DNA of 64,000 bases, taken from contig JAXGPH010000003.1 of the NCBI GenBank assembly GCA_040767065.1, positions 8,686 through 72,685 of the forward strand, read 5' to 3'. Shown piece by piece: positions 12,349 to 60,712 of this stretch. The position numbers and the translations under genes were made by a program. The stretch comes from Anaerolineaceae bacterium. GTDB taxonomy: Bacteria; Chloroflexota; Anaerolineae; Anaerolineales; Anaerolineaceae. Within the stretch, counting starts at the first letter, position 1, and the number at the start of each line of letters is the position of its first letter. The notes under the pieces are model-generated. The model had not been told where the DNA came from. It was given only the letters and a program-made list of their open reading frames with translations, and ran no database searches.

Positions 12349-13775
12349 GTGCGCCCAGCATGGGCGCTGGCTGGAGGGTGAAAGACCATTACGGAGGGTT
12401 GTTGTGCCAACCGTCAGCCAAAGGCAAGGGCATGGAGGAAGCTGAAGCCAACCCTGTGGCTTGAAGGACATGAAGCCGATCAGAGGCTGTGCGGCTGGGC
12501 GAGTTGGCAAATAACAACGAAGCCCAATGCGGCCAAGAGCCAAAGCAGTAAATAGGGCAGGAGTGCAGGGAAAGTCAGCATGCTTACCTGGGGAGGTCTG
12601 CCATCGTTTTGGAAAGTAACCCTGTTTGAGAGGACAGGCTGAGGTGGCAGAAGTCGCTCGAGGCCATAGTACCAAGAGTTTTTTGGGAAGGGCCGAACAG
12701 TGAGAGGATGAGTACAGAGAGCAGTCCATGGGATGAGCGAGAAGACAGAAACCACTGACAGAGGGCTATCGAACAAACGAAGCAGGTGAAACCTACGCGC
12801 GGGATTTGATCGGAGCGTCGAGCCGTTCCCTACAACAATCATCCGCCACAACCCAACCAAACGGAACGGCGCGAGGCCGTTCCTACAATAATCATCCGCC
12901 ACGAGCAAGCGGAACAGCGAGAATATCCACCTTAGCTTTATGCCCTTATCGTTTTCGTAGGGAAGGGCTTGACCCCTTCTCAGCAGCATAGCCAAACCGC
13001 GGAACGGCGCAGGGATATCCACCTTGGCTTGGTTGTTTTCGTAGGGGAGGGCTTGACTCCTTCTCCAACATGGCCAAACGGAACGGCGCGAGGATGTCCG
13101 CCTTGGCGGAATTGTTTTCGTAGGGAAGGGGCTTATTTTCTCATTATGGCCAAGCGGAACGGCGCAAGGCCGTTCCTAACAATCATCCGCCACAACCAAA
13201 CGGAACGGCGCAGGCCGTTCCCTACAATGGTCTTATAGTTTCCGCTGTGTATACGGTTAACCACAGGGGGTTATCCCTACACCTGGAAGTTTGAGGAGCA
13301 GATCGCCACGCAAAGAAGCTCGCGATGACGGATTCAGGCCAGATCGCTACGCAACAGAAATATCACCACAGCCAGATCAGCATAAAGGAAAGAATCCCCG
13401 TAGGCCAGATGAGACCGCCCCGCGGCCTTACTCTCATCCAATCGTGCGGCTCAGTCGGCGCAATTCGCCGATAAACATTTTCCATGTCGAAAAAGGCAGA
13501 TCGCCGTACCCTGCTTCGCGGGCACAGGCGCAAAAGAGGCTCGCGATGCCGGATTGCCCCTACACCTGGGAGTTTGAATTCACCCATAACACAATCCAGT
13601 CAACACAATCTGGGGTTACCCCTACAATATGAGACCTGGCGGTCAACTGCCTCGCACGGTCTGGAGACCGGCGAGAACAAAGGTGTTGTATTCTGGTAGG
13701 GGCAGACCCCTGTGTCTGCCCTGAAGACCGTAAAAAATCACCCTGGATAATGTGTAAACAATCATACCTGTTTAA
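12349..13775 (-). repeat. mosaic non-coding repeat block 1 (module X, hairpin-unit array, GGGCAGAC-type palindromes)
   Basis: 12349-12830 is near-identical to the reverse complement of 60290-60620. 12830-13255 holds about 5 units with the hairpin GGAACGGC-N5-GCCGTTCC flanked by TGTAGGG/CCCTAC. 13690-13775 matches 59690-59770 in reverse. ORFs here are open in several frames and track the repeats. Confidence 0.7.
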
Positions 13776-14173
13776 ACAGATTACCTTCCCCAATGTGTTA
13801 CTACAATGAAAAGTTTGAGGAATGAACGAACAAGGTAGAAACTCTTGGATAAGGAGACGGCGAACAGACAAAACAGGTGAAGTCTGTGGAAGAGGACAGG
13901 CCGCCGAGCTGTTCCTGGCACACGGCATTGGAAAATCCGCGCTGCAAACCAACTGCGTTCTCATTGAACCGCCGCTCCCTCCTCGATTGTTATTCAAGGT
14001 GAGATCCAGCAACCAGATTTATGCTTTATCTTCTTGGAAAGGGATTTTTGGGTTTCGCCGGGTGCGGAAAAACTGCCTGGTCAGCAAGACATCCGTCACG
14101 GGAATTTCGGAAGTCAGTATTGCCCATCAACTTTAACACTCGGCAATCTCGAATTTTCAAATGCTTTGGAAGA

Positions 14174-14993
14174 TCAACTACGCCTCAGAGAGTTCCCCAC
14201 CCACTGCCACCTTTCCGGTTTCGCGTCGATATCCAATAACTGCTCCAGTAGACGAGAAAAGTGGGATGGATCTCCACTGGTGAGATAACGGTGGGCTGGA
14301 TCAGTGCTGGAAGACCGGAGGAGATTATGCTGCATCAGAACACGCTCGGTCTGCCGGGCAATGGCAGGCGCTGGATCGATCACACGCACACCCTCTCCAG
14401 CAATTTGCTGGATCAGCGGAATGACAAAGGGGAAATGTGTGCATCCCATCACGAGCGTATCAACGCCTTCGGCAAGCATCGGCTGCAAGGCTTGCTGCAG
14501 GATTCGGCGGGTCAGGGGTGTCTGGAGGTAACCGCGTTCTATCTGTGTCACAAGTCCCGGGCAAGGTTGCCTCAAAGATCTGAACGTCCTTGGCAAAGCG
14601 TTCCACCACCGAGGCATACAATTCCCCCTGAAAAGTGGATGGAGTCGCCAGCACGCCCACCTTGCCGCTCAGGGTTTGCTCTGCGGCTGGTTTGACAGCC
14701 GGCTCCATGCCTACGAAGGGAAATTCCGGGTAGAGAGCGCGCAAGTACTTGAGTGCGGCAGCTGAAGCGGTGTTGCAGGCGATGACGATCAGTTTTGCGC
14801 CCTGATTCATCATCATGCGGGTGACCCCTTCAGCGAGTTGGCGCACCTCTTCCAGGGACGTTCGCCGCCAAGGCCATACAGCGATACCGTCATGGCGTGG
14901 ATTCGCCGTTAACTGGCTGTGGAGAGCGCGCAGCACTGAAAGCCCACCGACCCCTGAATCGTAAACGCCAATCGGCGCTTCTATGTTGGTCAT
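14174..14993 (-). pseudogene. murI: glutamate racemase MurI, reading frame broken by one extra nucleotide (possibly a sequencing artefact)
   Basis: The N-terminal ORF has GVYDSGVGGLSVL and IVIACNTASA. The C-terminal ORF has QPCPGLVTQIERG and LVMGCTHFPF. The frames join if one G is removed from the gagg at about 14578-14581. Length 820 nt minus 1 gives 273 codons. Confidence 0.8.
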
Positions 14994-15046
14994 GGGCTTA
15001 TTTTAGCATGCTGTTGAAGCAGCGGCGGGTTGTAATAAAACCTCTT

Positions 15047-15769
15047 TTAGCGTGTCGATCCGCTTGCTTCCACAAAAGCTTTGAAGATCCGCTGCATTGG
15101 CTCCGAATCGGGCAGCCACTCCGGATGCCACTGAACGCTCAGCACGAAGTGTTTGCCGGGTATCTCCAGCGCTTCAATCACCCCATCGGGGGCTGTTGCC
15201 ACAACTTTCAACCCCTCCCCAAGATCCTTAACGGATTGGTGGTGCAGGCTGTTCACCATAAATTCTGTGCCGCCCATGATATCTGCCAGGCGGCTGCCTT
15301 TTTCCACCCGAACAGAATGGGAAAGCCGGCTGCGCTTATAACCCGGCCACCACTGGTGCCGGCCAGCTTCCGGCAGCATGCTGGGGATATCCACCACAAG
15401 GTTGCCGCCCAAAGCCACGTTGAGGACTTGCTGCCCGCGGCAGATCCCCAGGATTGCCTTGTTCATTGTCACTGCCTGCCGGCAAAGCGCCAGTTCGAAC
15501 TGATCGCGTTCGCGATCGATTCCATCTATGCTTGGATGCAATTCCCCGCCGAAGAAATCCGGGTGGATATCCCCACCGCCAGAGATAAACAGCCCATCAA
15601 ATTCGCGCATAACTTCAGGGATGGCATCCAGCGGCAAAGCAGCAGGCAAAAGATACGGTCTGCCGCCGGCAGCAAGAATGGCGCGAACCAATTCCTCTCT
15701 GGACGAATAAGCGGGTGTGCTCCCTGGTTTTTGAATGCGAAAGGCGGTGAGGGCAATGCGAGGTATCAT
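15047..15769 (-). CDS. gamma-glutamyl-gamma-aminobutyrate hydrolase family / class I glutamine amidotransferase (peptidase C26)
   Basis: The nucleophile elbow GICRGQQVLNVALGG, plus HHQ and WHPE motifs. Confidence 0.8.
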   Translation of the reverse strand: MIPRIALTAFRIQKPGSTPAYSSREELVRAILAAGGRPYLLPAALPLDAIPEVMREFDGLFISGGGDIHPDFFGGELHPSIDGIDRERDQFELALCRQAVTMNKAILGICRGQQVLNVALGGNLVVDIPSMLPEAGRHQWWPGYKRSRLSHSVRVEKGSRLADIMGGTEFMVNSLHHQSVKDLGEGLKVVATAPDGVIEALEIPGKHFVLSVQWHPEWLPDSEPMQRIFKAFVEASGSTR

Positions 15770-15858
15770 GAGGTTCTCCGGAATGGTTAAATGTAAAAGC
15801 CCTCCCGTCTGGTGAGAAAACGGGGAAGGCTTTTAAAGTGCAGTGAAAATAACGCGGT

Positions 15859-16208
15859 TTAGAAACGCTGCTTCAGGCGAGCGCTCTTGCCGGTGCGTTC
15901 GCGCAGGAAGTACAAGCGGGCGCGGCGGACTTTGTTGTGGCGTTCAACCACCACTTTCGCAATGCGGGGCGAATTGAAGAGAAAGGTGCGCTCCACGCCG
16001 ATACCATTGCTGGCAACACGGCGGACGGTGAAAGTGCCGTCGTTGGCATTGCCGCGGACATAAGCACCACACCCTTGAATTCCTGGATGCGTTCGCGATC
16101 GCCTTCTTTAATGATTGTGTGTACGCTGACGGTATCGCCGGGGAACAAATCCGGGATATTAGCATTTTTCTCAGCTTCGACAGATTTCAATAATTCTGTG
16201 TGGTTCAT
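15859..16208 (-). pseudogene. rplS: 50S ribosomal protein L19, reading frame broken by one missing nucleotide (possibly a sequencing artefact)
   Basis: The N-terminus [32 protein letters not shown] is in one frame. The C-terminus [66 protein letters not shown] is in another, ending at the TAA at 15859-15861. The junction is near 16060-16070. 350 nt plus 1 gives 117 codons. Confidence 0.8.
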
Positions 16209-16333
16209 AATAACTTCCCTTCAAGTACTTACGCAAGATAAGCGCCTCAACCTGCTCGAGACGCGGACGATTAGTATATCACAATAATTTGCGAATTTGT
16301 CAAATTGCCTTGACAAATTGCCTTGACACAAGA

Positions 16334-16590
16334 TGAATTGACAGGGACTAATGGTTCTTTCAAAAATATCAAATTGGTATGGTTGACCGCATTTCGTCTG
16401 GTCCAAATGGCAGGCACGGGGGCCTGCCACTACGCCGGCACGGGGATCGGGCAAATACAACCATTCTGTGAAGCAAAGATCCAAGCAAGCTGCGGTTGTC
16501 TCTTCCAAATCAGAGAGTCCAAACTCGTTGCCGCCTGCTTATGACCACCCCTGGAGGACCGATGGAAAAAAGATAAATGGCAAACCTGTG
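16334..16590 (+). repeat. family-B intergenic element, copy B1 (about 1.5 internal 23-24 bp units)
   Basis: Starts tgaattgacagggactaatggttctttcaaaaatatcaaattggtatggttgaccg. Near-identical to the reverse complement of 36832-37205 and similar to 26568-26919. It contains the hairpin tggcaggc-acgggg-gcctgcca. Confidence 0.6.
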
Positions 16591-16725
16591 CCGATCCATT
16601 GCAAACCTACCTGAAGTAAAGTTTTCTATCGAGGCACTACCAGGTTGATATCAATAAAATGCCTCCAAATACTATATGGAATTAATTAGCGGGTAAAATA
16701 AGCCTGAATTCGAGAAGGAATGCTG

Positions 16726-19350: not shown

Positions 19351-19362
19351 AGGGGTTATGAA

Positions 19363-25040: not shown

Positions 25041-25164
25041 GATGGCATTATAATAGCACGGAAAACAAATGATTTCAAGAGCAAAGTGATTCTCAAGCGG
25101 TTCTCAAGCGGGCTTACGACTTCACTGCAAAAACGACAGGATAAAACTTATCCAAAAGAAACTC

Positions 25165-25395
25165 TGTAGTGCCTCAATAGAAATGTTCACTTTAGGTAAG
25201 TGGTTGGGATTTGTTGTTATTGGCCAACTTGCCCAGCCTCACAGCCTCTGATCGGCTTCATATCCTTCAAGCTGGAGGGTTGGCTTCAGCTTCCTCCATG
25301 CCCTTGCCTTTGGCTGACAGTTGGTACGACCAACCTCTGTAAGGGTCTTTCACCCTCTGGGCACCGCCCATGCTGGGCGCACAAAATCCCTGGGA
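25165..25395 (+). repeat. partial third copy of the module X tail, plus a fragment related to the B1 flank
   Basis: 25215-25385 matches the reverse complement of 12349-12520 (ttgcccagcctcacagcctctgatcggcttca..ggcttcagcttcctccatgcccttgcctttggctgac..). 25165-25200 in reverse matches 16600-16650. Confidence 0.6.
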
Positions 25396-25445: not shown

Positions 25446-26006
25446 TTATGGAAGGCAGGCTTCGAAAGCGGGCAGATGGTTGTTTAGCGAAGCTCGCTGC
25501 AGGTTAGTGTAGACTCGGATAAGTATTGGGTTGGTAGTGTTGGGCAGTAACTCCTCATATAGATCTGCATCTATTTGTTCAAAGGTTACACCCAATTGAC
25601 AAGCTTCTTCTAAAGTGCTCCATTCGATATCGGCCACCTCACCAGTGTTCTCAGGCACTTCAACCCCAAAGCGTTCTGCAACGCGGATCAGCGCGTTCGC
25701 ATGCTGTTGCTCAGACTGAGCGATGCGGGAAAAAGGCTGGACGTCCCCCAATTCATCTATGACAGCCAGGTAGGTGTTCATGGCAGTATATTCTTCTTGA
25801 ATTGCTTCGACGAGATCTGCCGCCTCTTGGTCGGACAAAGTGGTTGTTGTGATCCTTGCTTCTGGGCTCGCCAGTTGGCTTCGCCTATTCGCAGGGCCGC
25901 CACGGCCAGCTTCAACGGCTGCCTGGGACGGGCTATAAACAAATGCGGTTACTGCTATGACCAGAACCGTAATTGCAATGATTGTGATTGATTTTTTATT
26001 TTTCAT
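25446..26006 (-). CDS. secreted DUF2202 / ferritin-like domain protein
   Basis: Signal/TM MKNKKSITIIAITVLVIAVTAF, then EEYTAMNTYLAVIDELGDVQPFSRIAQSEQQHANAL (ferritin-like DUF2202 pattern). Start at the ATG at 26006 with an AGGAG RBS. Confidence 0.6.
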   Translation of the reverse strand: MKNKKSITIIAITVLVIAVTAFVYSPSQAAVEAGRGGPANRRSQLASPEARITTTTLSDQEAADLVEAIQEEYTAMNTYLAVIDELGDVQPFSRIAQSEQQHANALIRVAERFGVEVPENTGEVADIEWSTLEEACQLGVTFEQIDADLYEELLPNTTNPILIRVYTNLQRASLNNHLPAFEACLP

Positions 26007-26567
26007 CGTTATCTCCTGTTTGATTGACACTGATTTTATAGGAAACTCATTTAGATGTGCTTAAGCGAACATTTGGTTTTGATATATTTACCAGGCTTCC
26101 CAGGAAGTATGGGCGCGCGCACGCTTTCTGCAGTACGAATATGGCAAAATTTGGAGAAAAATTTACGTAAACTTGAACATAGAGCAACCAGGCGTCTGAT
26201 AATCGTCATAAACATGTTTTCAGAGACTTCATTGACCCACACTTACCCCATGTTGAGATCTATTCCTCTTTATAAATGTCTGTGCATAATACATTGCCAT
26301 GAGGTAAAGATGTAGAGGCGGATTGCCGCCTTGCATCGCTCCACGCACAGAACGGGTTGTAGTGCCGTTTGAGGCTGACCTAAAAATTTCACTGTTCCTT
26401 TTGGGAAAGCTAAAAGTGGGGGGACAAAATCGAAACATAGGCCTTTTGCGAGGTGTGCAGGTTAGTTTAAGCCCGAAAACCCAAGCCGGGTGGGCCATGA
26501 AATTACTGAAAAAAATGGAATGATCTGCAGGATGTAAAAATGGTCGGTTTTTGCTGAATTACGCTTG

Positions 26568-26919
26568 TGTCAAGGATAATTTAGAAATGTCCTGTTCGGT
26601 TGATAAAGTGTTCAGTACAGGTTTGCCATTTATCTTTTTTCCACAGGTCCTCCAAGGATGGTCATAAGCAGGCGGCAACGGGTTTGGATTCTCTGATTTG
26701 GAAGAAACAATCGCAGATTATCTGGATCTTTTCTCCACAGAAAGGTTGTATTTGCCAGATCCCCGTTTCTTCGTAGTGCCAGGCCCCCGTGCCGGTGTAG
26801 TGGCAACCCCCGTGCTGGCGTAGTGGCAGGCCCCCGTGCCTGCCATTTGGGCCAGACGAAAAACGGTCAACCATACCAATTTGCAATGTTTTCGAAAGAA
26901 TCCTTAGTACCTGTCAAGG
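26568..26919 (-). repeat. family-B intergenic element, copy B2 (about 3.5 internal units)
   Basis: Bounded by tgtcaagg at both ends. The core aligns with B1 and B3. It has three full 23-24 bp units of the gtagtggcaNNcccccgtgccgg type. Confidence 0.6.
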
Positions 26920-28902: not shown

Positions 28903-30570
28903 ATGGAGTTTGATTTAAAGAACAAAATGACAACAACGCAACGCATCACTGATGATCTGGAGGCGATGCTGGCAGTCTTCCCTCCGGAAGTTGCTCAGGC
29001 TGTACAATCCAGAAATAATTTTGATAACCTGCTCGAGGTTATTTTGGACCTTGGGCGTAATCCAAGCGCGCGCTTTACGACTGGCGAAGTTGAACTGCTC
29101 GATAAGCCGGTAACACACGATGATCTGCAATATGTCACAGACCGCATCGGCGATTTTGATGCTGATAACAGGGCAGGTCTGGAACGCACGCTGCACCGTA
29201 TTTCTGCCATTCGCAATCGCCGCGGCAAAGTCGTCGGTCTCACCTGCCGGGTAGGGCGGGCCGTTTATGGCACGATCGAGATCATTGAAGACCTGGTTGA
29301 ATCAGGTCAGAGCATTCTGATCCTGGGTAAACCCGGCGTAGGCAAGACCACCATGCTGCGCGAAGCTGCCCGAATCCTGGCGCAAAAGCACCGCGTGGTG
29401 ATCGTGGATACCTCAAACGAAATCGGTGGGGATGGAGACGTGCCGCATCCTGCGGTTGGACAGGCTCGGCGCATGCAGGTGCCAAAGCCCTCACTGCAGC
29501 ATGAAGTCATGATCGAAGCGGTAGAAAACCACAACCCGGAAGTGATCGTGATTGACGAGATCGGGCGCGAACTCGAGGCGCTTGCCGCCCGCACGATCGC
29601 GGAACGCGGCGTGCAGCTGATAGGAACCGCGCACGGCAATGGTCTTGAGAACCTGTTGCTGAACCCGACCCTTTCAGACCTTGTCGGTGGTATCGAATCG
29701 GTTACGCTCTCTGATGATGAAGCCCGGCGGCGGGGCACCCAAAAAACGGTGCTGGAACGTCGTTCTCCTCCAACCTTCACGGTTTTGGTCGAAATTATCG
29801 ATCGACAGCATGTGGCAGTTCATCGGGATGTCGCCAGCTCTGTGGATGCGATCCTGCGCGGTTATCCTATGCTGCCAGAGGAACGCTATCGGGACGAGTA
29901 TGGGAAGGTTCACATCGTCAAGACAACCAAACCAAATATGCCCACAGTCTCGCAGTCCCTGCGGCGTGGCAATAACAGGGAGACGGCTCCCTTCCAGCGC
30001 AATGGAGGGCAGGCAGTCACTCAAAACAAACAGCATGCCCAACGCTACAGCGAGATAAATGAGATCCGCGACGAGCTGGGCGGCATCGGTGACATCACAA
30101 TCCCCATAGAAAAGCGGATTTACCCGGTTGGCGTTCCTCGAAGCCGTTTGATTCAATCGGTTAGGGAGCTTGGTGTTCCGGCAGTGGTGGTTAAGGATCT
30201 CAAGGAAGCCGATATCCTGGTAACCCAACGTCGATACTACCGCGACCGGCTTCAACCGATCGTTGAAGCTGAGGAATGCGGCATCCCTGTCTTTGTGGTC
30301 AAGTCGAATTCGATTGGTCAGATCGAACAATTTTTGGCAGACTCGTTCCCAGGGCAGCTTACCATCCGCAGGGAGAGAATCTCATCTGAGGGGATTGAAC
30401 AAGCCATGCAAGCGATCGAAGATCTTGAGGAAGGTCAGAAATATGTTGACCTTCAACCTGCCCCTGCCTCTGTACGCCGCCAACAGCACGAAATTGCACG
30501 TCAGGCGCACCTTGTCTCGGAATCTTATGGAAAGGATCCCAATCGTTTCGTACGAATTTTTCGGGATTAA
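28903..30570 (+). CDS. R3H-domain AAA ATPase (Ycf45 / SpoIIIAA-like)
   Basis: Walker A GKPGVGKTT, VVIVDTSNEIGGDGDVPHPAVG, Walker B VIVIDEIG, GTAHGN. The C-terminal region has the R3H-type nucleic-acid-binding layout. Confidence 0.75.
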   Translation: MEFDLKNKMTTTQRITDDLEAMLAVFPPEVAQAVQSRNNFDNLLEVILDLGRNPSARFTTGEVELLDKPVTHDDLQYVTDRIGDFDADNRAGLERTLHRISAIRNRRGKVVGLTCRVGRAVYGTIEIIEDLVESGQSILILGKPGVGKTTMLREAARILAQKHRVVIVDTSNEIGGDGDVPHPAVGQARRMQVPKPSLQHEVMIEAVENHNPEVIVIDEIGRELEALAARTIAERGVQLIGTAHGNGLENLLLNPTLSDLVGGIESVTLSDDEARRRGTQKTVLERRSPPTFTVLVEIIDRQHVAVHRDVASSVDAILRGYPMLPEERYRDEYGKVHIVKTTKPNMPTVSQSLRRGNNRETAPFQRNGGQAVTQNKQHAQRYSEINEIRDELGGIGDITIPIEKRIYPVGVPRSRLIQSVRELGVPAVVVKDLKEADILVTQRRYYRDRLQPIVEAEECGIPVFVVKSNSIGQIEQFLADSFPGQLTIRRERISSEGIEQAMQAIEDLEEGQKYVDLQPAPASVRRQQHEIARQAHLVSESYGKDPNRFVRIFRD

Positions 30571-30573
30571 TCC

Positions 30574-31194
30574 ATGTTTATCACCCTTGAAGGTCCGGAA
30601 GGCAGCGGCAAGAGTACCCAAATCAAGCGTTTAGCGAAACACCTTGAAGAAATTGGATATTCGGTCATTACGACGCGTGAACCCGGAGGCACTCCAATCG
30701 GCGATCAGATCCGTCAGGTTCTGGTACGAATGGAAAACAAAGAGCTTCATCCTCGCACCGAAATGCTACTCTTTCTGGCAGCCCGCGCGCAGCTGGTTGA
30801 ACAAGTGATCAAGCCTGCTCTTCAGGAGGGTAAAATCATACTTTGTGATCGTTATGGCGATTCGACTCTTGCTTACCAGGGATACGGGCATGGGTTGGAT
30901 TTGGAACAGTTGCACCAGATGCTTGATTTCGCGACGGATCACCTCAAACCCGATCTGACAATTCTGTTGGACCTGGATGTGAAAACTGGTTTGATGCGAA
31001 AGAAGGCTAAAGATGAGTGGAACCGACTGGATGCTTATGAAGCCCTGTTCCACGAACGTGTGCGTGAGGGCTATCTGCGATTAGCGCGGGAAGAACCCGA
31101 ACGCTGGCGAATAGTGGACGCTTCGCAAGCGATTGACGCCGTCCAGGAAGATCTTTTCCAGATTATCCTCGATGCACTAACAAACCATCAATGA
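30574..31194 (+). CDS. tmk: dTMP kinase
   Basis: MFITLEGPEGSGKSTQ P-loop, TREPGGT, DRY motif. Confidence 0.9.
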   Translation: MFITLEGPEGSGKSTQIKRLAKHLEEIGYSVITTREPGGTPIGDQIRQVLVRMENKELHPRTEMLLFLAARAQLVEQVIKPALQEGKIILCDRYGDSTLAYQGYGHGLDLEQLHQMLDFATDHLKPDLTILLDLDVKTGLMRKKAKDEWNRLDAYEALFHERVREGYLRLAREEPERWRIVDASQAIDAVQEDLFQIILDALTNHQ

Positions 31195-31237
31195 ACAACT
31201 GACCTGTCGAAGCAGGTTCGGATGAAAGGATATCAGA

Positions 31238-32563
31238 ATGAAAAAAGTTACAAAATTTGTTTTGTTTTTTCTGGTGGCAGCATTAACGTTAAGTGCTTGT
31301 AAAGTTGCTACTATTACCCCTCCCCCGGTGGAACCGACAGCTACGGTGCAGGAAACTGAACCAGCCACCGAAGTAGTCGCTGAGCCGACAGAAGACCTGA
31401 CTCCTCAGCCGACTGCTGACACCCGTCTGATTGGCGACGATGGCAAAATGGTTTGCACTATCGTTGAGCCGCTTTTCAGCGAGTTGACACCGGAACAAGA
31501 AGCCCAACTGGCGGTCTTTCCGCCAGTTTCGGAAGCAGACTGGATCAAGGGCCCTGAAGACGCCTTGATTACCATCATTGAGTACACAGAATTCCAATGC
31601 CCGTACTGTGCCATGGCTTACCAGGAATTAGAAAAGCTGATGGATATGTATCCTGAAGATGTGCGCCTGGTATACCGCCCTTATCCGCTTATCAGTATCC
31701 ATCCCAACTCCCAGCTGGCAGCTCAGGCTGCCGAAGCTGCTGGTCTGCAGGGTAAATTCTGGGAGATGTATTCCAATCTCTTTGATAAACAAAGCGAATG
31801 GATCGATCTCTCAGAAGAAGATTTCCTGACATGGCTGGCTGCCGAAGCAACAACGCTTGGTCTGGACGAAGCGCAATTCTCACAGGACACGGTCAGTGAT
31901 TCTGTCAGGGAAAAGATCCAGAGCAGTATGGACTATTGTGCAAGCATCGGCATGAATTCCGTCCCGACGGTGCTCATCAATGGTCGCCCAATCAGCAATT
32001 GGTACGCCTCTGGCATCAAGCCCATCATCGAGGTTGTCAAGGTTGAAGACAGTCTGATGAAAGAATGCCCTCCTTGGGTGATTGACGTGGAGAAGACCTA
32101 CACAGCCACCATTAAGACCGAAAAAGGCGACCTGGTTGTGGAACTTTTCCCCAAGGAAGCCCCTTTGGCAGTCAACTCCTTTGTTTACCTGGCGCGTGAA
32201 GGCTTTTATGATGGGGTGACTTTCCATCGTGTCTATCATGACTTTATGGCGCAAACTGGCGACCCAACTGGCACAGGTTGGTCTGGTGCTGGCTATCAGT
32301 ATCGTGAAGAGATCGTGGATGATCTGACCTTTGACGAACCTTACATGGTTGGTGTTGCACGTGGGCAGCAAGCTGGTACCAGTGGCAGCCAGTTCTTTAT
32401 TACGTACGTTCCCTACCCATCGCTGAACGGTTTGTACACGATCTTCGGCAAGCTGGTGGATGGTGTGGACGTGCTCGAGCAAATTACAGAACGCGATGCA
32501 GATCAGAATCCGGACGCGCCGGCGGGGGATAAGATCATCAGCATCACCATCAACGAAAAATGA
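31238..32563 (+). CDS. lipoprotein fusing a DsbA-like thioredoxin domain to a cyclophilin-type peptidyl-prolyl isomerase
   Basis: Lipobox LTLSAC. CPYC active site in IIEYTEFQCPYCA. The C-terminal half has FHRVYHDFMAQTGDPTGTGWSGAGYQY and GTSGSQFFITY, which are cyclophilin signatures. Confidence 0.75.
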   Translation: MKKVTKFVLFFLVAALTLSACKVATITPPPVEPTATVQETEPATEVVAEPTEDLTPQPTADTRLIGDDGKMVCTIVEPLFSELTPEQEAQLAVFPPVSEADWIKGPEDALITIIEYTEFQCPYCAMAYQELEKLMDMYPEDVRLVYRPYPLISIHPNSQLAAQAAEAAGLQGKFWEMYSNLFDKQSEWIDLSEEDFLTWLAAEATTLGLDEAQFSQDTVSDSVREKIQSSMDYCASIGMNSVPTVLINGRPISNWYASGIKPIIEVVKVEDSLMKECPPWVIDVEKTYTATIKTEKGDLVVELFPKEAPLAVNSFVYLAREGFYDGVTFHRVYHDFMAQTGDPTGTGWSGAGYQYREEIVDDLTFDEPYMVGVARGQQAGTSGSQFFITYVPYPSLNGLYTIFGKLVDGVDVLEQITERDADQNPDAPAGDKIISITINEK

Positions 32564-32692
32564 GCCTGGTCCTCGTATCTTGGTCTCGTAGTGCTGTTTG
32601 TGGGTATGCCGCCAGTCTTCTTGCGCTTATTGAATAAGGCGCGTACAACGATGGAAACTCCTGTTTATATCACTCAAATGGGAGGTTAGACC

Positions 32693-33367
32693 ATGGATCG
32701 ACAGCGGATGATGAAAATCTTACATCACCTGGCCGATCGCCTGGTAAACCTTAAGATCGTGGGTGCAGAAAACGTGCAGGATGGAATTCCATACGTGCTT
32801 GCCACCAATCACATCAGCCGGCTTGATTTACCCTTCCTGATGCTTTCAACCCACCGGCAGGATGTTATTGCCATGGTAGCCAGAGAATACGAAAAAGCGC
32901 CTTTTTTTGGATGGTTTTTGAATAAACTTGGCGTGATTTGGATCTCACGTGGTGGATACGACCTTGGTGCGTTTCGTGAAGCTTCAAACAGGTTAAAAAA
33001 GGGTTGGATTGTGGGAATCGCCCCGGAAGGAACCCGCTCTAAAACCCGTCAACTTTTGCAGGGCAAACCGGGGGCGTCTTTGCTGGCGATTCGCAATCAT
33101 GTCCAGGTGATCCCTGCGGCAGTACTTGGTACGACCGAGGTAATGCAGAGCATTTTACGTCTGAAGAAAGCACAGATCGAAGTGCGTTTTGGAAAACCCT
33201 TTATGCTGTCTCCAACAAGTGATGAGCGCACAAACAAAAACCGCCTGCAGCAGGCAACCGATGAAATCATGTGCCGCATTGCTTTGCTGCTCCCCGAAGA
33301 ATGCCGCGGGTTTTATGCAAACCATCCACACCTGCTGGAATTGCAGGCTGAACAAAACCAACTTTAA
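32693..33367 (+). CDS. plsC: 1-acyl-sn-glycerol-3-phosphate acyltransferase family protein
   Basis: HX4D motif NHISRLD and PEGTRS motif. Confidence 0.75.
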   Translation: MDRQRMMKILHHLADRLVNLKIVGAENVQDGIPYVLATNHISRLDLPFLMLSTHRQDVIAMVAREYEKAPFFGWFLNKLGVIWISRGGYDLGAFREASNRLKKGWIVGIAPEGTRSKTRQLLQGKPGASLLAIRNHVQVIPAAVLGTTEVMQSILRLKKAQIEVRFGKPFMLSPTSDERTNKNRLQQATDEIMCRIALLLPEECRGFYANHPHLLELQAEQNQL

Positions 33368-33399
33368 TTATTTGAAATCTTCTCAGAGGGAGAACTGTA

Positions 33400-34083
33400 A
33401 TGATCCCAATTCGTGATGAAATAGAGACTCACCAAACCCCATTTGTTAATTATGGTTTGATTCTGATAAACGTAGTGGTCTTTTTGCTGACTTATGTCCT
33501 TAACACAGACCTTGAAGACGTTTATTTGAAATTTGCTTTCTTTCCAAACGAGATCAGTCAGGGGCTCGATTTAGGTGATGTGCGCAGTATTCTGACCAGC
33601 ATGTTCATGCACTTAGGTTGGGTGCACCTGCTGGGCAACATGCTCTATCTTTGGATCTTTGGCGATAACATCGAAGACAGGCTGGGTCACATCAATTATT
33701 TGATCTTTTACCTGGCAGGTGGTGTTTTCGCTGCCTTTGTTCATTACCTCACCAATCCAACGTCAACCATTCCAACTGTGGGTGCCAGCGGTGCCATAGC
33801 CGCCGTGTTGGGGGCTTACCTCGTGTTCTACCCACACAGCCGCGTCTTTACATTTATCCCGCTAGGTTGTTTTATCCGCCTAACGCTTATTCCTGCAGTT
33901 GTAATATTGAGTTTGTGGTTTATTCTTCAACTTTTTAGTGGTGTTGGCTCGCTCGGATTAGGTGACCAAGGCGGCACTGCTTATTGGGCGCATATCGGTG
34001 GCTTTATTTTTGGTCTCCTGGCAGGCCGCCTGTTCAAAAAGAGCGGACGCAAGCCCGTGCCCGCTCCGCCCAGCTGGAATTAA
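33400..34083 (+). CDS. rhomboid family intramembrane serine protease
   Basis: HLGWVHLLGNMLYLWIFGDNIE, catalytic GASGAI, and the downstream AHIGG His. Confidence 0.85.
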   Translation: MIPIRDEIETHQTPFVNYGLILINVVVFLLTYVLNTDLEDVYLKFAFFPNEISQGLDLGDVRSILTSMFMHLGWVHLLGNMLYLWIFGDNIEDRLGHINYLIFYLAGGVFAAFVHYLTNPTSTIPTVGASGAIAAVLGAYLVFYPHSRVFTFIPLGCFIRLTLIPAVVILSLWFILQLFSGVGSLGLGDQGGTAYWAHIGGFIFGLLAGRLFKKSGRKPVPAPPSWN

Positions 34084-36831: not shown

Positions 36832-37205
36832 CTGTCAAGGCAACTTAGAAATGTCCTATTCGGTTGATAAAGTGTTCAGTACAGGTTTGCCATTTATCTT
36901 TTTTCCATAGGTCCTCCAAGGATGGTCATAAGCAGGCGGCAACGGGTTTGGACTCTCTGATTTGGAAGAGACAACCGCATCTTGCTTGGATCTTTGCTTC
37001 ACAGAACGGTTGTATTTGCCAGATCCCCGTTTCTTCGTAGTGGCAAGCCCCGTGCCGGTGTAGTGGCAGGCCCCCGTGCCGGTGTAGTGGCAACCCCCGT
37101 GCCGGCGTAGTGGCAGGCCCCCGTGCCTGCCATTTGGACCAGACGAAAAGCGGTCAACCATACCAATTTGATATTTTTGAAAGAACCATTAGTCCCTGTC
37201 AATTC
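36832..37205 (-). repeat. family-B intergenic element, copy B3 (about 4.5 internal units)
   Basis: Near-identical to B1 apart from the number of 23-24 bp units (unit starts at 37037, 37060, 37084, 37107). ctgtcaattc occurs at 36785-36794 and at 37196-37205. Confidence 0.6.
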
Positions 37206-47444: not shown

Positions 47445-48150
47445 CAACTACCCGCTATGCGGGTGGTTTGCACTGAGGCTATAAGCCTTGTTCTCTAGCC
47501 AGCGCCTCAAGGCGCTGGCTTTCTCTTCGTTCAAGCCACCTTGCACTTGTCTCTTTTGCCGCCCCTCAAGGGGCTATCTCTTATCTCTTCTGTTCAAATG
47601 GGTCCTGGTATTCCTTCACACTCAACCGGTCTACCGCCTGATCCCTTTGTTCTTGCTCTGCTATGTACTTCTTGATTGTCTCTTCATTCATTCCCACTGT
47701 ACTCACATAGTATCCCTCACACCAGAAGTGCCGGTTCCCATATTTGTACTTCAGGTTCGCATGCCTCTCAAAGATCATCAGCGCACTCTTCCCCTTCAGG
47801 TATCCCATCACACTCGATACACTGTACTTCGGTGGAATACTCAACAACATGTGGATGTGATCCGGCATCATGTGCCCTTCGATGATCTCCACCCCCTTAT
47901 ACTTGCACAATTCCACCAGAATCTCTTTTATGTCTTCCCGTATTTGATTGTAGATTATTTTTCGCCTATACTTTGGCGTGAATACGATGTGATATTTGCA
48001 CATCCATTTCGTGTGTGCCAGACTGTCTGTTTTATTGGCCATACAAAACACCTTTCCTCTCTGGTCTGTGGCTTGAACACTCACATTCTATCGGAAGGGT
48101 GTTTTGGTTTGGGTCTAACCCTTTGCCCCCACCCGCATAGCGGGTGATTT
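47445..48150 (-). mobile_element. IS200/IS605-family insertion sequence (tnpA only)
   Basis: A Y1 transposase gene flanked by subterminal hairpins cccgctatgcggg (47450-47462) and cccgcatagcggg (48132-48144). Extra hairpins lie at 47495-47518 and about 47557-47573. The boundaries are approximate. Confidence 0.7.
47581..48042 (-). CDS. tnpA: IS200/IS605 family transposase TnpA (Y1 HUH)
   Basis: HTKWMCKYHIVFTPKYRRK, the HUH motif MPDHIHMLLSIPP, and the catalytic Tyr region GYYVSTVG. Confidence 0.85.
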   Translation of the reverse strand: MANKTDSLAHTKWMCKYHIVFTPKYRRKIIYNQIREDIKEILVELCKYKGVEIIEGHMMPDHIHMLLSIPPKYSVSSVMGYLKGKSALMIFERHANLKYKYGNRHFWCEGYYVSTVGMNEETIKKYIAEQEQRDQAVDRLSVKEYQDPFEQKR

Positions 48151-54643: not shown

Positions 54644-54654
54644 CTCATCTCCTC

Positions 54655-55689: not shown

Positions 55690-55699
55690 TCTTCACCTC

Positions 55700-55965
55700 A
55701 TCTGTTTGCCATTCGGACAAAAAAATGCCCATCCGGATAAAGGGACGGGCAAAAAAGCCGTGGTACCACCCTTCTTGGCTGGCAGAGCCAGCCCTCTCAG
55801 GTCGTTCTGTAACGGGAACTCCCGGCGCGGACTACTTGCACATTGGTTTCACCCGCTCGACTCCTGAGGGAACTTCACCTTTCGCTTGCCTGACGCTGCT
55901 CTCAATCTCGACCGCGCCTCCCTGTTGGGGCTCTAAAGCCTACTTTCCTCACTCACCATCGTTCG
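55700..55965 (-). promoter_or_regulatory. T-box leader (Phe specifier candidate UUC) upstream of pheST
   Basis: The conserved T-box AAGAAGGGTGGTACCACGG is at 55758-55776 on the minus strand. Stem I elements TGAGAGCAGCG and GGGTGAAACC are present. UUC occurs in both candidate specifier-loop positions. A TATAAT box lies at 55970-55975. Confidence 0.8.
55718..55752 (-). terminator. T-box leader terminator
   Basis: The minus strand reads tgcccgtccctttatccggatgggca followed by a T7-8 run. Its 5' arm can alternatively pair with the T-box sequence. Confidence 0.7.
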
Positions 55966-56070
55966 CACTATTATAGAAGTTTTCAGAGGCATGGTCAAGG
56001 GTCTCCAGCAGCCTCAAGCCCTGGCATGTAAAAGCCGGGCTTTCACCCGGCTTCATACTCTGCAATCACT

Positions 56071-56838
56071 TTACATCGCGGCTTTGACAATCGCAATAAA
56101 AGACTCAGCCTTTAGACTCGCTCCGCCAATCAATCCGCCGTCGATGTCAGATTGACCAAACAGCTCTGCGGCGTTTCCGGGGTTCACCGAACCGCCGTAC
56201 AAAATGCGAATTCCGTCTCCTATCGTCTCGCCAAACATATCGCGCAGGATCGGGCGGATTACGTCCCTATGCACAGCGTTTGCGCCTTCAGGCGTGGCTG
56301 CCAGCCCGGTGCCTATCGCCCAGACGGGCTCATAGGCGATCACCACCTGCTCAGCCTGCTCCTGGTTTAGCCCTTGCAGGTCTGCCCGCATCTGACGGCT
56401 GACGACTTCGGCGGTAATGCCGCTATGGTTTTCCTCCAAAGTCTCACCCACGCACACAATCGGTTTCAGTCCGTGTGCCAATGCTGCCAAAACTTTCTTA
56501 TTGACGGTTTCATCCGTCTCGCCAAACATAGCGCGCCGCTCTGAGTGCCCCAAAATGACATACTCGCACAATTCTTTCAACATGGTCGGAGAAATTTCAC
56601 CGGTAAACGCGCCCGAGTCTGCCCAATGCATGTTTTGTGCTCCAAGCTTTATGGTCGATGCGTCCACCTCGCGTTTTGCGACCCCCAACCCCACAAACGG
56701 CGGGCAAATCACAACTTCCACCTCCTCCACGGCATGCAAAACAGGATACATTTCACGGATCAAGTCGCGGGTCTCAGACAACCCTTTGTTCATCTTCCAA
56801 TTGCCGGCAACCATTGGTGTTCTCATCAGTTTTACCAT
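56071..56838 (-). CDS. tpiA: triosephosphate isomerase
   Basis: AGNWKMN, ILGHSERR, AYEPVWAIGTG. The start may be the internal ATG at 56826. Confidence 0.9.
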   Translation of the reverse strand: MVKLMRTPMVAGNWKMNKGLSETRDLIREMYPVLHAVEEVEVVICPPFVGLGVAKREVDASTIKLGAQNMHWADSGAFTGEISPTMLKELCEYVILGHSERRAMFGETDETVNKKVLAALAHGLKPIVCVGETLEENHSGITAEVVSRQMRADLQGLNQEQAEQVVIAYEPVWAIGTGLAATPEGANAVHRDVIRPILRDMFGETIGDGIRILYGGSVNPGNAAELFGQSDIDGGLIGGASLKAESFIAIVKAAM

Positions 56839-57172
56839 CCTCCAAGATTTAGTGTTTCTATTTTATCATCAAGTTGCAGGGGGTTTGACATGATGAAATG
56901 TTGTTTATGTTGTTTATGATGGAAATAAGGAGAGCAGGCTATGTAAGGGTGTGTTGGCGTAAAGGAGCATGGGAATCAAGAGGGCGTTTAAAAACCAACC
57001 CGCCGGTTGAATGTGAGGAGTTTGCGTTGGCAGGTAGGCTCTCCCGAGCCAACGGTTGGTAAGGGTTATGTGACGCCAACCCACACAAGTAATACCGTCA
57101 AAATGATGCAAGCCATCTAAAATGGCGCATGCCTCAGTTATAATTCCCTCACTAATCATAAAGGAGTTAACC

Positions 57173-58975
57173 ATGACCACGCCCCCACGTTGGGATCTTT
57201 CCAATCTCTATCTCTCTCTAGATGACCCTGCCCTTGCGGCAGACATTGAAGCCGTGAAGCAATCCATCCAGGAAGCAACCCAGGCGTTCGAAACAAAATT
57301 TCTGCCTTTGCTTGACCCTGCCACATCCCTTGAAACCCTCAACCACGCCTTGAATGGCTACGTGGAAGCAGCCAACGCCCTCGAACTGAAGGCTGGCAAA
57401 ATTTTTTCCTTTTTAGGCGCAATCATTTCCACAGATTCCTTTAACAAGGCTGCCGAGCAACTGCATTCAAAAATGGCAATAGCCATGCTTCCACTGCATG
57501 ATTTGGATGTGAGAATCAGTGCCTGGCTGGGTGCCCTCGGCGATCGGCTGGATAAGGCGCTGGAGATTCCAGGTGCGGCGCATGATCACGCATTTCGGCT
57601 GCTGGAAATGGCGAAGGAGAGCCGTTTCCAAATGTCTGAACCGGAGGAGAGCCTCGCCAACGAGCTGACGCTTTCGGGTGGAAGGGCTTGGGGTGACCTG
57701 CAGGGGGTGCTAACTTCGCAGAAGAATGTCGACTTCGAGCTGGATGGTAAGCTGCAATCCCTGCCTCTGCCTGCATTGATCAACCTGCGCTCGCATCCAG
57801 ACGCGGGAGTGCGGGAGCGCGCCTACAAACGTGAGCAGCAAGTCTTCGAAGAAATGAAAGAGCCATTGGCTGCCTGTTTGAATGGTGTTAAAGGGGAGGT
57901 GGTAACGCTGGATCGCAAGCGCGGTCGCGAAGACTGCCTGCATTCCTCGCTGGACAAGGCAAGGATCGATCGCAGCACGCTCGAGGCGATGCTGGGAGCA
58001 ATTGATGATGCCTTGCCAATGTTCAGGCGCTATTTCCAAGCCAAGGCTCGCATCCTTGGCTCCGAGAAATTGCCCTGGTGGAGCTTGTTTGCCCCGATCG
58101 GTGAAGTAAACAAGGAATATACGTTTGATGAAGCCCGCGATCTAATCCTGGAGTATTTCGGCACTTTCTCGCCTGAACTGGCTGAATTCGCCAGGGGCGC
58201 TTTTGAAAAACACTGGATCGACGCTGAGCAGCGCCCCGGCAAACGCGGTGGAGCGTTTTGCATGGGCGTGGATGCCATACGGGAAAGCCGCATTATGGCG
58301 AATTTCGACGGCTCCTTTGACCAGGTAATGACCCTGGCGCATGAACTCGGGCATGGCTTCCATAATTACTGCGCCTATCAGGCGGGCAAAACCCCCATGC
58401 AAACCAATACGCCCATGACCCTGGCGGAAACCGCCTCGATCATGTGCGAGACGATTGTTTTCAACGCAATCCTTAAAACCGTCAGCGATCCACTGGAGGA
58501 ACGCGCAATCCTTGAAACCACAATTTCCAGTGACGCCCAAACTATTGTTGATATTTACTCGCGCTTCATCTTTGAGAAGGCGGTGTTCGAGAGGCGCAAG
58601 GAATCAACCATTTCTGCTGATGAAATCAGCGCCTTGATGCTGGACGCCCAGCGAAGAACTTATGGCGATGGACTGAATCAGGACGTTTTGAACAAGTTTG
58701 CCTGGACCTGGAAACCGCATTATTACAGCACGCAGTTGTCTTTCTACAATTACCCCTACGCCTTCGGCAGTTTGTTTGCAAAAGGACTCTACAGCGTTTA
58801 TCGTGAGCGAGGAGAGGATTTTGTGGAGGACTATAAAACTCTGCTCTCTAACACCGGCGAGGCTCAGGCGGCAGACCTGGCGGCACGCTTTGGGATTGAT
58901 ATCCGTTCAAGGGAATTCTGGGCGGCATCGCTGGCGCAGATTGGTGAGCAAATCGAACGTTACATTGCGATTTGA
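57173..58975 (+). CDS. pepF: M3B oligoendopeptidase (PepF family)
   Basis: HELGHGFH zinc motif. Start at the ATG at 57173 with an AAAGGAG RBS. Confidence 0.85.
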   Translation: MTTPPRWDLSNLYLSLDDPALAADIEAVKQSIQEATQAFETKFLPLLDPATSLETLNHALNGYVEAANALELKAGKIFSFLGAIISTDSFNKAAEQLHSKMAIAMLPLHDLDVRISAWLGALGDRLDKALEIPGAAHDHAFRLLEMAKESRFQMSEPEESLANELTLSGGRAWGDLQGVLTSQKNVDFELDGKLQSLPLPALINLRSHPDAGVRERAYKREQQVFEEMKEPLAACLNGVKGEVVTLDRKRGREDCLHSSLDKARIDRSTLEAMLGAIDDALPMFRRYFQAKARILGSEKLPWWSLFAPIGEVNKEYTFDEARDLILEYFGTFSPELAEFARGAFEKHWIDAEQRPGKRGGAFCMGVDAIRESRIMANFDGSFDQVMTLAHELGHGFHNYCAYQAGKTPMQTNTPMTLAETASIMCETIVFNAILKTVSDPLEERAILETTISSDAQTIVDIYSRFIFEKAVFERRKESTISADEISALMLDAQRRTYGDGLNQDVLNKFAWTWKPHYYSTQLSFYNYPYAFGSLFAKGLYSVYRERGEDFVEDYKTLLSNTGEAQAADLAARFGIDIRSREFWAASLAQIGEQIERYIAI

Positions 58976-58989
58976 GGTTTTGATGCAAG

Positions 58990-60712
58990 GGCATAATGCG
59001 CCGTTTTTACGCACTCCGCCAACGACGTGGGTATCGGAGCGATCCTGCGCAAGGCTTGTATGGAAATAACGCTCTGAGGCAGCCTTGTTCTGACACACAA
59101 CACCCCGTGCGGACCCGGGCAGGCATGGGGGTCTGCTGCTACCCGGAAATATCCTTGTGCGGGTCACCCCATGGGGTGACCCGTCTCGGTTGAGGCATCT
59201 CACAAAGGAAGGCACGGCATCCAACAGGGGGAGGCTTCACACTGCTGTGCCCCGACCAAAAAGGATATGTTCTCGCCGCTCTGCAGATACCCCCCACTTT
59301 GTTGCGATCACAGACCGCACTAGGGGGTTGACCGCCAGGTCTCATAAGGTAGGGGTAACCCCCCTGGTTAACCGTCTACACGGCAGAAACTATAAGACCA
59401 TTGTAGGGAAAAGGCCTGTGCAGTTCCGTTTGGTTGTGGCGGGTGATTGTTGTAGGGAACGGCCTTGCGCCGTTCCGGTTAGCCATGTTGAGGACAGGGG
59501 TCAAGCCCCTTCCCTACGAAAACAATCAAGCCAAAGTGGATATCCTCGCGTCGTTCCGTTTGGTTGTGGCGGGTGATTATTGTAGGGAACGGCCTCGCGC
59601 CGTTCCGGTTGATTGTGGCGGGTGATTATTGTAGGGAACGGCCTCGCGCCGTTCCGGTTAGCCATGTTGAGGAAGGGGTCAAGCTGTTTAGACAAGTATG
59701 ATTGTTTACACATTATACAGGGTGATTGTTTACATATTCCAGGGCAGACACGGGGGTCTGCCCCTACAAAGCTGCCCCCTCCTTAACCCCTGGAGATAGG
59801 GGTAACCCCCTGTGGTTACCCGCTCTCATGGCATATATGCGCTTGGTATTATGATCCAGAAGATTCTATGTGATTGACAAAAGTGTAAACAATCATCCTA
59901 CACAAATTGTAAACCATCATTGCCTCAGCCCCTTCCCTACGAAAACAATCAAGCCAAAGTGGATATCCTCGCGCCGTTCCGTTTGTTTGTGGCGGATGAT
60001 TGTTGTAGGGAACGGCCTTGCGCCGTTCCGGTTAGCCATGTTGAGGACGGGGTCAAGCCCCTTCCCTACGAAAACAATCAAGCCAAGGTGGATATCCTCG
60101 CGCCGTTCCGTTTGTTTGTGGCGGATGATTGTTGTAGGGAACGGCCTTGCACCGTTCCGTTTGGCCATGCTGAGGAAGGGGTCAAGCCCCTTCCCTACGA
60201 AAACAATCAAGCCAAGGTGGATATCCTCGCGCCGTTCCGTTTGTTTGTGGCGGATGATTGTTGTAGGGAACGGCCCGACGCTCCGATCAAATCCCACAGG
60301 CTTCACCTGCTTCGTTTGTTCGATAGTCTCTCTGCCCGAGGGTTTCTGTCTTCCTCGCTCATCCCACGAACTGCTCTCTGTACTCATCCTCTCAACGTTC
60401 GGCCCTTCCCAAAAAACTCTTGGTACTATGGCCTCTGCTGACTTCTGCCACCTCAGCCTGTCCTCTCAAACAGGGTTACTTTCCAAAACGATGGCAGACC
60501 TCCCCAGGTAAGCATGCTGACTTTCCCTGCACTCCTGCCCTATTTACTGTTTTGGCTCTTGGCCGCATTGGGCTTCGTTGTTATTTGCCAACTCGCCCAG
60601 CCTCACAGCCTCATAGGGTTCGTGCGCCTCAGGTCGCAGGTTTGCTTCCAGCTTCCTCCAGACCCCGCCTCACGACGACGCCCTTGCCTTCAGCTAACGG
60701 TTGATGGGTGAA
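58990..60712 (+). repeat. mosaic non-coding repeat block 2, an inverted counterpart of block 1
   Basis: It contains a 22-24 bp perfect palindrome GGGTCACCCCATGGGGTGACCC (59161-59182), degenerate hairpin units at 59400-59690, a GGGCAGAC hairpin at 59742-59766, a 129-bp tandem array at 59925-60290, and module X at 60290-60712. Confidence 0.7.
59925..60290 (+). repeat. 129-bp tandem repeat, about 2.8 copies
   Basis: ccttccctac recurs at 59931, 60060 and 60189 (period 129). Each unit carries GGAACGGC-cttgc-GCCGTTCC and the longer inverted pair CCCTACgaaAACAATC / GATTGTTGTAGGG. Confidence 0.8.

Follow-up and report, generated by a model that had tools for sequence, protein, structure and literature searches.

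We analyzed a 64-kb stretch of DNA (hereafter the window) from a member of the Anaerolineaceae, in which two blocks of mosaic, non-coding DNA lie in opposite orientation on either side of a segment of core genes. We consider it probable that each of the two blocks is a nest of non-autonomous selfish DNA that gathered between genes, at the 3' ends of convergent pairs, and that they do not form a dedicated inversion device. The nests are made of remnants of group IIC introns, arrays of repetitive extragenic palindromic (REP) sequences arranged as bacterial interspersed mosaic elements (BIMEs), and a MITE, or miniature inverted-repeat transposable element. An earlier note on this DNA had described these modules by their sequence only and did not recognize them. 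The window corresponds to C23:8686-72685 of the source genome, G000, a metagenome-assembled genome (MAG) that is 67% complete (1.45 Mb in 67 contigs) and contains many frameshifted genes. Its closest relative, G011, is about 91% identical to the window at the nucleotide level.

The earlier note had claimed that the two blocks are mutually inverted, that both sit at gene 3' ends, and that core genes lie between them, and all of this was borne out. Self-comparison of the window gave a longest ungapped inverted pair of 259 nt with 96% identity (12483-12741 vs 60354-60612) and a gapped inverted pair of 390 aligned nt with 94% identity, and about 20 shorter inverted pairs connected 12800-13780 with 59310-60300. 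Block 1 lies between the convergent genes degV (+) and murI (-), block 2 lies between pepF (+) and a gene for a beta-helix protein with PMP repeats (-), and the interior holds rplS, lysS, metK, pheS, and pheT. Strand-aware BLAST showed that a backbone of about 1 kb is common to both blocks, forming a collinear chain that runs from module X through module Y with the start of the array, and then through the hairpin array, to the intron module. In this chain, module X is 87% identical between the blocks (13663-13612 vs 59311-59362), and module Y with the array start is 84% identical (13280-13074 vs 59349-59563). The stretches 13290-13600 in block 1 and 58976-59310 in block 2 have no partner in the other block. 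The further claim that both blocks carry the same modules in the same order stands for X, Y, the array and the intron, but not for the 'ctgttta...gtatgattgtttacac' module, which is out of register. This module is outermost in block 1 and lies in the middle of the array in block 2, so that the order is shared only from 59685 onwards. When the number of genomic copies was counted for each base, nearly all of both blocks proved to be multi-copy, with 5-37 further loci, and only the intron's distal (3') part and the intron-to-array junction were specific to this pair.

The module described previously as about 430 bp long corresponds to the 5' portion of a group IIC intron and spans domain I to early domain IV. 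The Rfam models group-II-D1D4-3 and group-II-D1D4-1 matched both blocks above their gathering scores and on opposite strands, at 12418-12693 (+) and 60402-60679 (-); the matching strand is the opposite of the one used in the earlier note. In the intron fragment of block 1 (copy A), RF02001 scored 86.9 bits at 12418-12582 and RF01998 scored 51.9 bits at 12617-12693. In that of block 2 (copy B), the corresponding scores were 122.4 bits (60513-60679) and 68.2 bits (60402-60478). Copy A has its 5' GTGCG at position 12349, the stem-loop of the degV terminator being its insertion target, and it is cut inside the start of the reverse transcriptase (RT) open reading frame (ORF). Copy B has lost about 20-55 nt of its 5' end and adjoins the stop codon of the beta-helix gene. 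A third fragment, copy C, was matched by RF02001 with 36.8 bits (25156-25313, -) and is 89% identical to copy A (inverted-repeat pair I2). In total, G000 holds five intron copies with an Rfam match.

Insertion right after a terminator-type stem-loop is a hallmark of IIC introns (PMC1702495). Copies A and C, a further G000 copy on contig C66 (copy E), and the copy in the closest relative all start directly after a strong stem-loop, which is followed by a T run in copies A, C, and E. Copies A and B carry the group II consensus structure of domains I to IV, and lack the RT and domain V/VI. No match to the RT family PF00078 was found in the G000 assembly, and no match to domain V/VI (RF00029) was found in either block, even at E<=1, or anywhere else in that assembly. 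A survey of 41 genomes of the genus found the intron in two, G000 and G011. The single intron of G011 is full-length, with 5' GTGCG directly after a stem-loop, a domain V/VI match of 46.3 bits, and a 467-aa protein of RVT_1 and GIIM domains only, whose best match among solved structures is the GsI-IIC RT (6AR1, E 2.3e-163). Domain V of this intron begins with CCGCC, which would fit a CGC-type triad of IIC introns. At the far end of block 1 we found a second, different intron piece, the 3' remnant of a mini-intron of the copy E type. Positions 13821-13972 are 86.8% identical to positions 360-511 of the C66 mini-intron, and over its last 19 nt the remnant agrees with the 3' end of the full-length intron of G011. 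Block 1 thus reaches about 13985, where this remnant ends, and the insert defined by comparison with the closest relative runs to about 14100-14169.

Some observations concern these introns outside the blocks. Copy E (C66:11715-12291, -), an ORF-less mini group IIC intron of 577 nt, directly follows a terminator stem-loop. Its 3' end has kept a match to the domain V/VI end of the full-length intron in G011, and the copy may even now be able to splice or to be mobilized in trans. The full-length intron on G011 contig C44 (L038 3440-3556) lies directly after the terminal hairpin of a copy of the insertion sequence (IS) IS200. This is the same IS200 as that at 47445-48150 of the window, and its end serves as a terminator-like intron target. 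Two candidate intron parts were rejected. The DNA at 13822-14136, considered as an RT N-terminus, showed no protein similarity and is the intron 3' remnant, and module X (GAGACCTGGCGGTCAAC...), considered as domain V, gave no match to RF00029 and represents a repeat family of its own, of which tandem copies occur elsewhere.

The hairpin units of the blocks are REPs. A REP is defined by a GT[AG]G head followed by a palindrome, and a BIME by regularly spaced REPs in alternating orientation; GTAG repeats were reported earlier in Chloroflexi (PMC2817692, PMC3733652). All hairpins listed in the earlier note carry a GTAG head, and they form BIME-like tandem arrays in which the orientation alternates. 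REP-a is GTAG-GGAACGGC-N5-GCCGTTCC, also written GTAGGGAACGGC-N5-GCCGTTCC, and REP-b is GTAG-GGAAGGGG-cttga-CCCCTTCC, also written GTAGGGAAGGGG-N5-CCCCTTCC. REP-d is GTAG-GGGCAGAC-N6-GTCTGCCC, and a further GTAG-headed hairpin in the blocks is GTAG-GGGTAACCCC. The hairpins GTAGGGAACGGCCTTGCGCCGTTCC, GTAGGGAAGGGGCTTGACCCCTTCC, and GTAGGGGCAGACCCCCGTGTCTGCCC conform to the REP pattern of an imperfect palindrome of 20-40 nt with a GT(A/G)G head. Under a strict definition (GTAG head, perfect hairpin), 10 of the 13 hairpins in the window fall inside the two blocks. Each 129-nt unit in the second part of the block 2 array (Tandem Repeats Finder score 656) contains one REP-a (+) and one REP-b (-), and two array units folded as single-stranded DNA gave a z of -4.6. 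The array of block 1 has 5-22 related copies elsewhere in the genome. Perfect REP-a hairpins number about 20, on 8 contigs of G000, and GTAGGGAACGG occurs at 101 sites with <=1 mismatch in the 1.45 Mb, some of them by chance.

A candidate transposase for these REPs was found in the same genome. Seven Y1-transposase matches were detected in G000: one canonical IS200, which lies in the window, and six ORFs of 161-188 aa that resemble REP-associated tyrosine transposases (RAYTs). Each of the six is surrounded by its own family of GTAG/CTAC-headed hairpins. The ORF on C65 (161 aa) has arrays of REP-a and REP-b on both sides, and its best family match is NF047646, the REP-associated tyrosine transposase, with 63 bits. 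The RAYTs on C40 and C45 pass NF047646 with about 170 bits, and their REPs differ from REP-a and REP-b.

The RAYT-like ORFs are located at C40:8437-8775, C15:4846-5196, C15:18452-18817, C45:50446-50778, C67:5874-6101, and C65:9864-10103. For a genome of about 2.2 Mb, this is an unusually rich load of REP/RAYT families. A scan of genome contigs showed that two other MAGs, one of an uncultured Ruminococcus (CAYXNU01) and one of the Thermomicrobiales (JBARWF01), also contain the exact REP-a motif, TGTAGGGAACGGC-N5-GCCGTTCC, with dozens of copies, and that other phyla have single copies. Horizontal spread of a single RAYT/REP pair might account for this distribution, as might convergence. In the window, the family-B elements at 26772-26840 and 37037-37127 contain 23-nt tandem units beginning with GTAGTGGCAG.CCCCCGTGCC, a further GTAG-headed REP-like unit.

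Block 2 contains a third kind of element in the middle of its array. Alignment of 17 copies with their flanks gave the boundaries of a short, non-coding element with terminal inverted repeats (TIRs), possibly with a 2-bp target-site duplication, of which the genome holds at least 15 copies with 96-99% identity. These properties are those of a MITE. The block 2 copy sits in the loop of a REP-b hairpin, and several other copies likewise lie between the halves of GTAG-headed hairpins. In block 1, only the first 87-100 nt of the MITE are present, at the outer end (13793-13696), and this part has 21-23 copies elsewhere. Members of the module X family are present at more than 10 loci, one of which is a tandem array on C6. 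The positions of all these features are collected in Table 1.

What the two blocks share beyond their element families is a junction. Copies A and B have an identical intron-to-REP junction, in which ...GGAGCGTCG(A/G)GCCGTTCC is joined to CTACAACAATCATCCGCC, so that the junction must have arisen once. At the homologous place, the full-length intron carries GAGCCGTCCCCAAC, which is REP-like. The identity between copies A and B was then found to change along the intron: it is 65% over 12349-12482, 96% over 12483-12741, and 84% over 12742-12829, and copy C matches the first 134 nt of copy A (12349-12482) with 89% identity. The sharp rise at 12483, from 65% to 96%, marks a recombination boundary. 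Because the distal parts are alike and have not been swapped, the event seems to have been non-reciprocal, either gene conversion or duplication, without a crossover. The inverted orientation of the two copies can be explained without any rearrangement, since an IIC intron inserts in the sense orientation relative to the gene before it, and the genes before copies A and B are on different strands.

Gene order was compared with that of the relatives G011, G005, G006, G009, and G015, and of the near-complete Anaerolineaceae genome G018. The degV and murI genes are adjacent and collinear in G011 (gap of 237 bp) and G005 (gap of 101 bp), and they are collinear in G009 and G015 with unrelated inserts of 1.4 and 2.4 kb. 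In G011, G006, G009, and G015, pepF is followed within 54-189 bp by a gene of the major facilitator superfamily (MFS). In the window, block 2 and the beta-helix gene separate these two, and in G005 the same place is taken by another insert, of 5 kb. Block 2 and the beta-helix gene are absent from the spot in four of the five relatives. In G018, the genes of the left flank and the interior (6200-15769 and 28903-34083) are in the same relative orientation as in the window. These data indicate that the blocks are lineage-specific insertions in variable spacers and that the present orientation is the ancestral one. The inversion of the 13.8-59.0 kb segment that the earlier note had raised was thus not seen: none of the relatives compared has the alternative orientation, and none shows an inversion breakpoint at the blocks. 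The GC skew has no step at either block and changes sign at about 44-46 kb, although it proved uninformative as to the blocks.

The inverted homology itself must still be weighed. A RecA-type crossover between the 259-390-nt inverted intron tracts would flip a core segment of 47 kb, either in the past or as a polymorphism, and the claim that the blocks are a substrate for inversion is sound in that the homology is real, long enough in principle for such recombination, and marked by a footprint of exchange; the mosaic profile indeed indicates that the copies recombined with other copies. The footprint, however, is non-reciprocal, whereas a crossover would swap the distal parts and not homogenize them. 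In addition, both junctions keep the adjacency of four to five congeneric species and of G018, the skew has no step at the blocks, and an inversion would reorient rplS, the aminoacyl-tRNA synthetase genes, and metK relative to replication. The homology could support inversion in principle, but none is seen in the gene order of the relatives, and we regard a working inversion substrate as very unlikely. An assembly artefact, in which a collapsed repeat led to mis-joining or duplication of the MAG contig, seems most improbable to us. The incomplete, fragmented state of G000 and its many frameshifted genes would make such an error conceivable. The two arms, however, are 96% and not 100% identical, their array periods and inserts differ, and the order of the flanks is that of the relatives. 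Furthermore, the junction between degV and intron copy A is present in 10 independent public assemblies with 98.5-99.9% identity, which argues against a mis-join. All 10 break 35-160 nt into the intron; a break inside the intron could be read in favor of an artefact, and it also confirms that the intron is repeated in those populations. Because these degV-matched contigs stop inside the intron, the orientation cannot be read from them. Two scans of metagenome contigs, with the degV terminator and with the intron-to-REP junction, gave no match, and exact-protein look-ups for pepF and the beta-helix protein gave no record.

The shared junction could also have come from two retrohoming events, if each block were an ORF-less IIC intron that carried the REP array, Y, and X as domain IV cargo and was mobilized in trans by the RT of a full-length copy. 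Such an intron would account for the sense orientation of both copies directly 3' of a gene and for the identity of the junction in A and B. Block 1 has, moreover, an intron 5' part at one boundary and an intron 3' remnant at the other, both on one strand; C66 carries an ORF-less mini-intron with domain V/VI, and a full-length helper is present in the lineage (G011). But neither block has a domain V/VI, and the 3' remnant and the 5' fragment of block 1 have about 90 intron positions in common, at which they are only about 74% identical, the remnant being of another (E-type) lineage. In block 2 a 3' remnant is missing, copy B lacks the 5' end and the terminator, and copy A derives its first 134 nt from another lineage. 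We therefore give this explanation little credence. A broader possibility, which we likewise consider unlikely, is that the junction is no accident: either a RAYT/REP system cut the IIC intron at the REP-like site GAGCCGTYCC-CWAC in the RT gene, or a BIME array became the domain IV cargo of an ORF-less IIC intron, which was retrohomed in trans to another gene end.

Returning to the reading of the blocks as nests of selfish DNA, we infer an order of events from the junction, the identity profile, and the element boundaries. IIC introns, which home to DNA just past terminator stem-loops in the sense of the upstream gene, would have landed behind degV (+) and behind or near the beta-helix gene (-), giving inverted copies. 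One intron was then presumably truncated inside the start of its RT ORF at GAGCCGTYCC-CWAC, which resembles a REP 3' arm with a CTAC head, and was joined there to a BIME-like array of GTAG-headed REPs. The arrays would have been spread and amplified by a RAYT, a Y1 transposase like that on C65, which has the same two REPs at its flanks. Next, one locus may have received from the other a copy of about 1 kb, comprising module X, module Y, the REP array, and intron positions ~135-480. The intron homology probably primed this copying, by ectopic gene conversion or by duplication, which would explain both the 96% tract and the identical junction. The blocks would have diverged later, yielding array periods of 79 nt in one and of 49 and 129 nt in the other, with the MITE entering a REP loop in block 2 and other small repeats entering block 1.

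Several points weigh against this reading. No terminator stem-loop was found before copy B, which adjoins the stop codon, and since its 5' end is missing as well, a canonical homing event at this site is unsupported. The roughly 20 perfect REP-a copies in the 67%-complete genome are fewer than in classical REP families, and the C65 protein falls below the curated cut-offs of both NF047646 (63 vs 80 bits) and Y1_Tnp (20 vs 23 bits). Finally, the source genome is a MAG.

Table 1. Features of the two blocks and related elements in the window (positions of the whole window).
Feature	Position	Strand	Remarks
degV intrinsic terminator	12315-12347	+	13-bp stem and T run; fold -19.9 kcal/mol, z -4.3
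Intron copy A	12349-12829	+	5' piece reaching from domain I into the first part of domain IV and of the intron-encoded protein ORF; 3'-truncated
REP-a/REP-b array, block 1	12830-13255	-	Alternating orientation; 79-nt period x2.7 at 12951-13169
Module Y (..ggttaaccg..ctataagaccattgtaggg)	13218-13280	-	Pair I18, 90%; common to block 2; only 3 genomic copies
Short repeat families (CATCGCGAGC type)	13290-13600		Absent from block 2; 17-21 copies elsewhere
Module X (GGAGACCTGGCGGTCAA...GGAGACCGGCGAGAAC family)	13612-13695	-	Preceded by GTAGGGGTAACCCC REP; pair I21, 87%
Truncated MITE, 5' part	13696-13793	-	REP-d hairpin GTAGGGGCAGAC-N6-GTCTGCCC; 84-87% to 59667-59767
E-type mini-intron, 3' remnant	13812-13985	+	ORF-less; domain V and most of VI deleted; ends ...gctccctcc/tcgatt
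Intron copy C	25204-25386	-	Short 5' fragment directly after terminator stem-loop of DUF2202 gene (25446-26030)
Degenerate REP-like hairpins and other repeats	58976-59310		Downstream of pepF; no block 1 counterpart
Modules X and Y, directly adjacent	59311-59410	+	Inverted-repeat and BLAST pairs with block 1
REP-a/REP-b array part 1, block 2	59410-59684	+	49-nt period x2.4 at 59544-59659
Full-length MITE	59685-59927	+	243 bp; imperfect TIRs of ~24 nt (TGTTTAGACAAGTATGATTGTTTACA / TGTTAGGACAATGATGGTTTACA)
REP array part 2, block 2	59927-60266	+	129-nt unit x2.7, 97%, 59927-60275
Intron copy B	60267-60705	-	Truncated at both ends; 3' junction to REP array same as in copy A
Beta-helix (PMP-repeat) / InlB B-repeat gene	60717-62621	-	Pfam PF02415, PF18998; stop codon adjoins copy B

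The surroundings of the blocks showed some further peculiarities. Block 2 and the beta-helix gene together form a 3.8-kb insert (58988-62816) between pepF and the MFS gene, and G011 and G006 have a beta-helix paralogue, 55-71% similar, between the pheS leader and tpiA instead. The murI gene next to block 1 is represented by two overlapping ORFs in different frames (14174-14993, -), and the product of rplS (15873-16208, -) matches the L19 profile in its first half only; both may be due to indel errors in the assembly. G011 is rearranged relative to the window, in that the stretch from 16340 to 4207 (reversed) is joined directly to the stretch from 28852 onwards on its contig C18, and G018 agrees with the window against this arrangement. 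The synteny breaks with G011 (contigs C18, C49, C8, and C42) include a family-B element at 16340-16655 and a 165-nt repeat at 56887-57075, and no repeats were found at the breakpoints 4207 and 28852 of the window. This rearrangement could be real, or it could be a mis-join in the G011 MAG.

Each component of the nests has known counterparts. The intron copies resemble group IIC introns such as B.h.I1 of Bacillus halodurans, GsI-IIC of Geobacillus stearothermophilus, and O.i.I1 in their match to the Rfam models of domains I to IV, their 5' GTGCG, and their insertion behind stem-loops, and the relative G011 encodes an RT-maturase that lacks an endonuclease domain and is similar to the GsI-IIC RT. 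They differ in that copies A and B are dead fragments fused to REP arrays, with neither RT nor domain V/VI, and copy B also without the 5' end. The arrays are comparable to the REP/BIME systems with RAYTs (TnpA-REP) of Escherichia coli, Pseudomonas, and Stenotrophomonas (PMC2817692, PMC3733652): a GT(A/G)G head precedes a GC-rich hairpin, two REP types alternate in regularly spaced tandem units at extragenic sites near gene 3' ends, and a RAYT-like gene is embedded in arrays of the same REPs (C65). Unlike those systems, they occur in a host from the Anaerolineaceae (Chloroflexota) with a modest copy number per family and at least six RAYT-like genes with their own REPs, and the candidate cognate RAYT is divergent, scoring under the family cut-off. 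The MITE is similar to nested elements of the Correia, RUP, and ERIC types in having about 245 bp, imperfect TIRs, no ORF, and many near-identical intergenic copies, but several copies here lie inside the loops of GTAG-headed hairpins, and its parent transposase was not identified. As in inversions mediated by rrn operons, IS copies, or prophages, inverted homologies of a few hundred base pairs surround a large segment; in contrast to them, no relative has the alternative orientation, the homology is short and 4-6% diverged, and the only footprint of exchange is non-reciprocal.

The nest is therefore composed of ordinary, known kinds of element, and only the joining of intron to REP array at a REP-like site, together with the duplication of this junction, goes beyond the routine. 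The junction leaves a slight chance that IIC introns and RAYT/REP systems interact in a way not reported before. If true, it would be a previously unreported interaction between two kinds of hairpin-targeting mobile DNA, and through the inverted homologies left behind, some members of the population might still have the 47-kb segment flipped. The value of the present analysis lies mainly in annotation, because three known types of element account for about 3.5 kb of non-coding DNA whose mosaic make-up, with spurious ORFs in several frames, was puzzling. The step in identity within the intron provides a clean, small case of ectopic non-reciprocal exchange between dispersed repeats, by which gene order here was unaffected. 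For the biology of the family, our results suggest that small-genome Anaerolineaceae can hold a dense mixture of REP families, each with a RAYT-like gene, beside a recently acquired group IIC intron, and that the terminator-proximal spacers of convergent genes serve as shared landing sites at which such elements pile up and recombine.

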